Of a stretch of DNA of 64,000 bases, positions 1,262 through 55,346 are shown one piece after another; the first letter of the stretch is position 1; each line of letters starts with the position of its first letter. The notes under the pieces are model-generated. The model saw only the letters and a program-made list of their open reading frames with translations. It was not told the DNA's origin and did no database searches. Made by a program: the position numbers and the translations under genes. Source of the stretch: Escherichia coli (lineage in GTDB: Bacteria; Pseudomonadota; Gammaproteobacteria; Enterobacterales; Enterobacteriaceae). The DNA is taken from assembly GCF_051903065.1 (NCBI RefSeq), contig NZ_CP178438.1. One strand, 5' to 3'.

Positions 1262-1360
1262 GCCCCCTCACCCTAACCCTCTCCCTCAGGGAGCTGTCTC
1301 TTGATCAGATCTCCTGATCAAGAGACAGGGGGAGAGCCGGGGAGAGGGGAAAAGGCCGCA
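1262..1360. repeat. Extragenic GC-rich imperfect palindrome with a perfect 15-bp inverted repeat core (ctgtctcttgatcag / ctgatcaagagacag, 5-bp spacer)
   Basis: Read directly: 1294-1308 and 1314-1328 are exact reverse complements; outer arms ccctc.../...gagggg are imperfectly complementary. Lies between lldD stop and trmL start. Confidence 0.7.
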
Positions 1361-4383: not shown

Positions 4384-4635
4384 TTATTTCAGCAGGGGAT
4401 CCAGTCCACCACGTGCATCCAATGCATACAAGTCATCACAGCCGCCAATGTGCTGTGCGTCAATAAAAATCTGGGGAACCGTGGTGCGACCGCTGCGTTT
4501 GATCATCTCTTCACGCTTGGCGGCGTTGCCATCGATCGGCAGCTCCTGGAAACTCACGCCCTTGCTGCTCAGCAGTGCTTTTGCACGATGGCAATACGGG
4601 CAGGTTTCTTTGGTATAGATTTCAACATTGGCCAT
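4384..4635 (-). CDS. grxC: Glutaredoxin 3
   Basis: 83-aa [25 protein letters not shown]... with CPYC active site. Confidence 0.93.
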
Positions 4636-27206: not shown

Positions 27207-27245
27207 CACGCTACCGCCCCAGGCTCAACAGCTACCTGAATACTG
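27207..27245 (-). promoter_or_regulatory. JUMPstart element with ops site (GGCGGTAGCGTG) in the waaQ operon leader (RfaH-dependent antitermination)
   Basis: Minus strand reads cagtattcaggtagctgttgagcctggggcggtagcgtg; the 12-nt ops consensus is exact at 27207-27218 (forward cacgctaccgcc). Confidence 0.85.
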
Positions 27246-55251: not shown

Positions 55252-55346
55252 GGAAGATCGTCGTCTCCGGTGAGGCGGCTGGACTTCAAATCCAGTTGGG
55301 GCCGCCAGCGGTCCCGGGCAGGTTCGACTCCTGTGATCTTCCGCCA
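55252..55346 (+). tRNA. selC: tRNA-Sec (selenocysteine, anticodon UCA)
   Basis: 95-nt sequence ggaagatcgtcgtctccggtgaggcggctggacttcaaatccagttggggccgccagcggtcccgggcaggttcgactcctgtgatcttccgcca, with long variable arm, UCA anticodon and encoded CCA. Confidence 0.95.

Follow-up and report, generated by a model that had tools for sequence, protein, structure and literature searches.

A probable insertion sequence relic with ISEc13 termini inside a BoxC/TMECO pair of the Escherichia coli lldD-trmL spacer

The lldD-trmL spacer and its alleles

The window, by which we mean the whole 64,000-nucleotide stretch of Escherichia coli DNA that was analysed (contig NZ_CP178438.1 of assembly GCF_051903065.1), carries the genes lldD (63-1253, + strand) and trmL (1408-1881, + strand), which flank a spacer of 154 bp. 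A reading made from the sequence alone, without database searches, had named these two genes and had placed between them a GC-rich imperfect palindrome of about 100 bp with a perfect 15-bp inverted repeat, and both statements are borne out. The core of the palindrome, 35 bp at 1294-1328, consists of perfectly complementary arms at 1294-1308 and 1314-1328 on either side of a 5-nt centre, while the GC-rich outer arms at 1264-1286 and 1327-1349 are 74% complementary. Folded as RNA, the segment 1250-1415 forms a single long hairpin of -79.7 kcal/mol (z = -4.95 against shuffled sequences). The first part of the core, the 19-mer CTGTCTCTTGATCAGATCT at 1294-1312 on the + strand, is unique in the 64 kb when up to three mismatches are permitted, and the number of matches expected by chance is 0. 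Two Dam GATC sites had been pointed out in this 19-mer, as is correct, and the core holds three in all (1303-1306, 1308-1311 and 1316-1319), which lie within 17 bp.

A search of Rfam returned no family at the site of the palindrome. Elsewhere in the window, matches at the gathering score were obtained for tRNA-Sec (55252-55342, + strand, 83.8 bits) and for the JUMPstart element (27207-27245, - strand, 55.2 bits), both of which are ordinary for this chromosomal region. A REP/PU-like palindrome, gccggatagatgattacatcgcatccggc, can be read from the sequence at about 1889-1920, between the convergent genes trmL and cysE. The spacer itself contains a second hairpin at 1381-1409, ATCCTGCCCCC-GCACTAA-GGGGGCAGTAT, which spans the ribosome-binding region of trmL together with its ATG at 1408; it is unchanged in all five of the aligned spacer alleles, unlike all of the sequence upstream of it, and could control the translation of trmL.

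The spacer is highly polymorphic in E. coli. Of 5,426 complete E. coli genomes, 790 (14.6%) carry the allele of the window, counted wherever coverage of 1262-1360 reached at least 80%. Each of them has it once, always between lldD and trmL, and strains B, C, ATCC 8739 and HS are among them. Of 16 metagenome matches to the 35-mer, 13 come from the same locus. The other alleles are a K-12 type, an O157 type and two short forms (PA11 and FAH) which have little or no BoxC sequence, and the core is missing from all four. Among strains which do carry the core, the right junction reads GGGGAGAGCC, GGGGAG-GCC, GGGGAGGGCC or GGAGAGGGCC, and one junction variant lacks 10 bp on the left, so that its hairpin is more symmetric. 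The observation that was to count against a transposon origin, namely a single-copy element conserved at this locus and without likeness to IS ends, was found in part only: the element is single-copy, but it is polymorphic and clearly derived from an IS. A miniature inverted-repeat family in E. coli, which had also been proposed, does not fit one locus per genome and a site without target duplication.

ISEc13 termini in the core and BoxC/TMECO remnants in the arms

The 19-mer at 1294-1312 had been matched to the inside end of IS50, and the match is exact. On the natural Tn5 of the Salmonella plasmid pSTM6-275, the terminus of IS50L, just upstream of the aph(3')-IIa leader, reads ...AAGATCTGATCAAGAGACAG|GATGAGGATCG, and the window is identical to this inside end at 19 of 19 positions, sharing with it the transposase-recognition sequence and its two Dam sites. 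The two diverge from nt 20 inward, where IS50 continues as TGATCCCC / TGATCCCCTGCGCC whereas the core reads CCTGATCAAGAGAC, as in ISEc13, and the window does not run on from the 19-mer into the end of the IS50 transposase reading frame. The window also has the end duplicated in inverted orientation, which the inside end of IS50 does not.

Nucleotides 1-33 of the core are identical (33/33) to the inside-end terminus of ISEc13, as found in enteropathogenic strain E2348/69 (locus L040) and in many pseudogene copies. The same 33-mer forms the ends of genes and pseudogenes annotated as IS4/Tn5 family transposase on plasmids and chromosomes, among them copies on F-type plasmids (L005, L006 and L009), a 1,445-bp copy adjoining espL2 in O157:H7 (L007) and a 1,539-bp copy adjoining a tRNA-Arg gene in Nissle/CFT073-like strains (L011). 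Transposase fragments of this type of element match the Tn5 transposase in the PDB with E = 2.6e-43 and 2.4e-27, as distant homologues only. The intact element is named ISEc13 in RefSeq; it is a relative of IS50 in the IS4 family, 1,550 bp long with a 457-aa transposase (WP_000244358.1), and it is present in about 30 copies in EPEC O127:H6 E2348/69. In the searchable literature ISEc13 is named only in lists. Its termini are CTGTCTCTTGATCAGATCT and CTGTCTCTTATACACAAAT, and the latter, an outside-type end, matches the IS50 outside end at 17 of 19 positions and the engineered mosaic end also at 17 of 19, the sequences of both having been confirmed from oligonucleotides in PMC3347997. Position 4 of CTGTCTCTTATACACAAAT (L040 4564-4582) is T, as in the engineered hyperactive Tn5 mosaic end, where the IS50 outside end has A.

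In every copy, the inside end of ISEc13 contains 13 bp of its terminus a second time in inverted orientation, nt 21-33 being the inverse of nt 3-15 (L040 3033-3065). This inverted copy overlaps the last transposase codons and the stop (...KSLDQEI*), and it may drive the formation of the 35-mer. At nt 34-35, where ISEc13 has TT, the window has AG, and these two bases complete a second terminus, …AAGAGACAG. Thus, the core corresponds to an ISEc13 of which only nt 1-33 and the final two bases are left. The sequence at 1294-1328 on the + strand, CTGTCTCTTGATCAG-ATCTC-CTGATCAAGAGACAG, is in this sense a two-ended relic, whose second, inverted end lies on the minus strand at 1310-1328 (CTGTCTCTTGATCAGGAGA) and repeats the inside end over its first 15 nt. 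The two 19-bp ends have 3 nt in common, and therefore both cannot be complete. What the window retains of the second ISEc13 end is just the terminal AAGAGACAG, which is common to both ends of the IS, so that the last nine bases of the core fit either terminus; neither sub-terminal sequence of the outside end nor an ORF was found in the element. Compared with ISEc13, the relic keeps the same nt 1-33 but lacks the transposase gene, the interior and a target duplication, and measures 35 bp against 1,550 bp. The earlier proposal of a transposase-recognition relic was therefore right in kind, the core being the relic of a transposon end, but its source is ISEc13, matched over 33 nt, and not IS50, matched over 19 nt.

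The outer arms have a different origin. BoxC/PIT/TMECO repeats have been known since the 1990s. Their motif is CCCTCNCCC-N3-6-GGGNGAGGG-N3-GGGNGAGGG, in which the second loop is TTA in type A and CCG in type B (PMC4666352). They lie head to head as a pair in the lldD-trmL spacer of many E. coli strains. K-12 has 23 TMECOs, and two of them are catalogued in its lldD-trmL spacer, namely TMECO 17 (type A, antisense, 3,781,061-3,781,028) and TMECO 18 (type B, sense, 3,781,121-3,781,156) (Table 1 of PMC4666352), and the flanks of this pair (3,781,028-3,781,156, directly after lldD) align with the window. The left arm of the window, 1263-1293 on the minus strand, is a type A remnant equivalent to TMECO 17, as judged from its sequence, the published motif and coordinates, and the alignment of alleles. 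It comprises a C-stem CTCCC (1293-1289) reduced from 9 to 5 nt, a TGA loop (1288-1286), GGGAGAGGG (1285-1277), a TTA loop (1276-1274) and GGGTGAGGGGG (1273-1263), so that both G blocks and the TTA loop are intact. The right arm, 1329-1349 on the + strand, is a type B remnant equivalent to TMECO 18, in which a damaged first G block, GGGGAGAG (1329-1336), is followed by the CCG loop (1337-1339) and a second G block, GGGAGAGGGG (1340-1349), while the C-stem and the first loop are absent. In the alignment, the 35-mer stands in place of the central 76 bp of K-12, that is, both C-stems and the 59-bp spacer between them.

The window arms thus show the GGGNGAGGG-N3-GGGNGAGGG blocks and the TTA and CCG loops of the described repeats (Bachellier; Hoyne and Maher; Holder et al. 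2015, PMC4666352), but the centre is foreign IS DNA, and because both C-stems are truncated or absent, the arms no longer make up the full three-block triplex motif as published. The window contains no other BoxC-like sequences. About 20 nt just outside the TMECO C-stem are shared by two TMECO loci (GAGGGGACCGTTCGGCGCTGTATGT and GAGGGGACCGATCGCGCTCAATGT), at about 440-465 of the K-12-type lldD-trmL allele (L001) and at about 4590-4615 in the right flank of ISEc13 in L040, and the repeat unit therefore appears to be longer than the published 34-37-nt motif. The sequence-only reading had offered a transposase-recognition relic and a conserved extragenic palindrome family as alternatives, and each was half right; they apply to different parts of the element, the former to the core and the latter to the arms.

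Target choice of ISEc13 and recurrence of the 35-mer

Insertion into such palindromes is a habit of ISEc13. Target sites were taken from ten sites of an identical transposase gene in one genome, plus the copy in E2348/69. Seven of ten full copies have clean 8-9-bp duplications which form the loop of a C-run/G-run hairpin, as in CTCCCCC[GCTTCACGC]GGGGGAG or in CCCTCT[GTTACTAC]AGAGGG followed by a T-run. One of the seven, the E2348/69 copy, lies in the TMECO between tusA and zntA with a perfect 9-bp duplication, AGAGGAGCG, at the part of the motif where the window has its relic. The reconstructed empty sites (about 41 nt each) have folding energies of -12 to -25 kcal/mol and rank in the top 0.05-8% of the window background. 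Inside ends of ISEc13 also adjoin BoxC-like motifs on F-type plasmids, in E. whittamii and in S. silvae; in Budvicia their neighbour is another palindromic repeat, and both orientations occur. ISEc13 accordingly prefers the loop or centre of hairpins made of C-runs and G-runs, a preference which the searchable literature does not describe. Insertion sequences that target palindromes are a known category, which includes ISRm22 of the IS4 family (Tobes and Pareja 2006, PMC1525189). Like IS1397, ISKpn1, IS621, ISPpu9 and ISRm22 (PMC1525189), ISEc13 favours extragenic palindromic repeats, but these elements hit REP/PU, whereas the targets of ISEc13 are BoxC/TMECO and terminator-like C-run/G-run hairpins.

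A truncated ISEc13 end joined to a BoxC-like motif is found at L005 2999-3061 and on about 330 E. coli plasmids, where the fusion immediately follows an ABC-transporter substrate-binding gene. The arrangement, which F-type plasmids widely carry, is a second case, independent of the first, of an IS end joined to BoxC.

The remnant recurs outside E. coli. In a cross-species scan for exact matches to the 33-mer or 35-mer in one genome per species, which under-samples diverged relics and other types of remnant, the 33-mer was found in Serratia, Budvicia, Rahnella, Salmonella and other Escherichia. At all ten non-IS sites, in five other species (Serratia silvae, S. proteamaculans, Budvicia aquatica, Salmonella diarizonae and Escherichia sp. 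MOD1), it is followed by AG and by no further IS sequence. One S. silvae genome accounts for five of them, none with a target duplication. Most of the ten are central in palindromes of a BoxC-like or another C-run/G-run kind, and within 2.5 kb of each there is no further IS end. Three metagenome relics occupy yet another family of palindromes.

Target duplications, which are usual for the full element, are missing from the relics: a duplication of 8-9 bp, the kind of short direct repeat which the sequence-only reading had proposed to look for beside the copies, was found at none of 16 relic sites in any species. In the window, the flanks CTCAGGGAG and GGGGAGAGC contain no duplication of this length, and their best direct match is 5 nt. 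The flanks of the 16 relics match better as inverted repeats, with a mean score of 7.5 against 4.2 for direct ones.

Two candidates for full ISs, S. silvae L017 and Rahnella L031, were rejected, being an end fragment of 82-88 bp and a variant of the 33-bp relic, respectively. At L017, about 82-88 bp of the inside end are kept beside a host peptidase gene and are joined to one half of a BoxC through CCTCCC..TAT microhomology, and it represents an intermediate-size deletion product at the same type of site. The F-plasmid IS (L006) and the Salmonella relic (L037) were considered as the same site before and after loss of the IS and were downgraded; the homology of their flanks amounts to no more than 23 bp and about 15 bp, and their 5-nt centres have opposite orientations. 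Budvicia L027 and Salmonella diarizonae L037 have about 31 bp in common beside the relic (AGCCTGGCTGGGrGTTTTCyATAGACAAAAA) while their remaining flanks are unrelated, and an 84-bp block which holds the relic in L037 is missing from the neighbouring copy of the same local repeat. Both findings suggest that a small segment travels or recombines along with the relic.

Proposed origin, competing explanations and significance

Taken as a whole, the element is very probably a relic of an ISEc13-family IS within a BoxC/TMECO pair; that it arose by the specific deletion mechanism set out here is about an even chance. The identity of the two layers, the polymorphism of the locus, the target habit of ISEc13 and the recurrence of the 35-mer are direct observations, and it is the order of events and the way of deletion that we infer. 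An ISEc13-family IS would have entered the C-stem/loop of a BoxC, and all of its sequence except inside-end nt 1-33 and the terminal AG would then have been lost through replication slip or template switch, independently of the transposase. The candidate slip repeat is the 7-bp AAGAGAC, of which one copy lies at nt 27-33 and another at the far terminus of the IS, so that one deletion between the two would yield exactly the 35-mer, and the flanking palindrome would favour the slip by bringing the IS ends together. Small deletions would finally have trimmed the duplicated target and the BoxC C-stems, leaving a longer and more perfect hairpin. For the window, a reconstruction with CTCAGGGAG as the duplicated target and subsequent loss of CTCAG by CAG/CAG slip would reproduce the ws5-3 right junction. 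A simple internal deletion predicts that the 8-9-bp duplication is retained, and none of the 16 relic sites has one. Since the duplication is absent and the flanks tend to resemble inverted copies of each other, the model requires a further event, which would be either a template switch by fold-back at the hairpin of the IS end or, at a later stage, correction of the quasipalindrome. The presumed precursor, whether a full or partial ISEc13 or an uninterrupted BoxC, is present at lldD-trmL in no complete E. coli genome: a chimeric query of flank and IS had its best matches at other loci, and a synthetic query for the uninterrupted BoxC gave as top matches only two-piece relic alleles or alleles of the O157 or K-12 type. 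Lacking a transposase gene, and with 19-bp ends that overlap, the relic would form no paired-end complex and should be immobile. Its likely activities are structural only, namely a very stable hairpin in the 3' region of lldD and three clustered Dam sites.

The nearest known parallel is Tn10. This is a composite transposon with inverted 1.3-kb copies of IS10, and its remnant is roughly 50 bp; the window element would instead descend from a single IS in a palindromic target, and it is a remnant of 35 bp whose target duplication is lost. For Tn10, it is established that 'nearly precise excision' between short repeats leaves short remnants (Ross 1979; Foster 1981). These resemble the window element in being short palindromes of two transposon termini, and are products of host-mediated deletion between short direct repeats that is stimulated by inverted repeats.

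A more ambitious account, which we consider unlikely, would regard the ISEc13 family and BoxC-type palindromes as a specific system of insertion and collapse, in which the transposase targets hairpin centres and the IS end, with its inverted copy of the terminus, would act together with the palindromic target to drive a deterministic fold-back that leaves the same 35-bp palindrome each time. If it were true, the 35-mer would represent a footprint that is programmed, or perhaps a mini-element that can be mobilised in trans, it would lengthen and stabilise host hairpins, and it would be a main cause of TMECO hypervariability and of the 'palindrome effect'.

Alternatively, there may have been one ancient collapse in a BoxC, after which the relic-bearing BoxC was copied to other BoxC sites by gene conversion, by recombination between repeats, or by whatever disperses BoxC. 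The relics do lie in members of repeat families without target duplications, the block shared by L027 and L037 and its absence from the neighbouring repeat copy would suit such copying, and TMECO loci have been reported to be hypervariable (PMC4666352). However, the relic in E. coli is confined to one BoxC locus despite tens of BoxC copies per genome, and the palindromes which harbour relics belong to at least three unrelated families (BoxC, the CCCCTGCGAA type and the Budvicia type), which points to several independent events. Passive spread is therefore improbable as a general explanation, and it bears on the multiplicity of relics in other species, the reading of the window being unchanged by it.

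It is just as improbable that the palindrome is a selected functional signal in which IS-like sequence was co-opted, for instance as a terminator or 3' stabiliser of lldPRD, as a protein-binding site or as a Dam-regulated site. A very stable hairpin directly after the lldD stop codon, three GATC sites in close succession and the frequency of the allele count in its favour. The hairpin of a Rho-independent terminator is present, but the U-tract is not: the + strand continues after it with GGGGAAAAGGCCGCACGG, no T-run follows on either strand, and a terminator scan returned a trivial 5-bp stem only. Promoter and terminator activity of PIT/BoxC elements has been reported absent (PMC4666352). Alleles that lack the structure are common; at least four others are without the core, two of them with almost no BoxC, so the structure is dispensable, and the junction sequences drift between strains. 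Thus, while the sequence-only reading was right that an extragenic palindrome family is involved, the arms being BoxC/PIT/TMECO 17/18, its suggestion that this family acts as the lldPRD terminator is not supported, and nothing indicates a present-day role of the relic.

Still less probable is a minimal non-autonomous transposon, a mini-MITE, moved in trans into hairpin loops by the transposase of the ISEc13 family. The perfect 15-bp terminal inverted repeats are those of a real transposase-binding end (ISEc13/IS50), hence related to an autonomous IS as in MITEs, and the identical 35-mer occurs at five S. silvae loci and at several loci elsewhere, in the same type of target as the full IS. Dispersed E. 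coli copies with duplications are not found, though; an 8-9-bp duplication accompanies seven of ten full IS copies but no relic, and E. coli has one locus in 790 genomes, including genomes which also carry ISEc13 remnants. To judge from the architecture of the Tn5 synaptic complex, a duplex of 35 bp with overlapping 19-bp ends could not loop so as to pair them, and L017 offers a longer deletion product at the same type of site. Finally, a remnant of IS50/Tn5 itself, or a scar of laboratory Tn5 or mini-Tn5, has the identity of the 19-mer in its favour but is practically untenable given the divergence past nt 19 and an allele found in 790 natural and classical strains and in gut metagenomes, and chance resemblance to the IS50 end is likewise rejected on sequence and distribution.

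On the preferred reading, then, the element at lldD-trmL is an ordinary kind of thing, a strain-variable IS scar in an extragenic palindrome, and no effect on the expression of lldD or trmL is implied. What is modestly new is that an element of the IS50 group targets BoxC and terminator-type hairpins, that a two-ended remnant of 35 bp recurs in several genera, and that a transposon remnant is present at a TMECO locus, since the published survey (PMC4666352) states that no transposase remnants had ever been seen near TMECOs. A caution also follows for Tn5-based mapping and primer design, as the exact 19-mer of the Tn5 inside end occurs naturally in many E. coli chromosomes, including those of B, C and ATCC 8739. 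With ISEc13, the palindrome-targeting ISs gain a member of the IS50 group. About one in seven E. coli genomes carries a transposon scar amid a catalogued TMECO pair, and this scar, together with the targeting by ISEc13 and the recurrence of the remnant, provides a concrete and testable contributor to the variability of TMECO loci.
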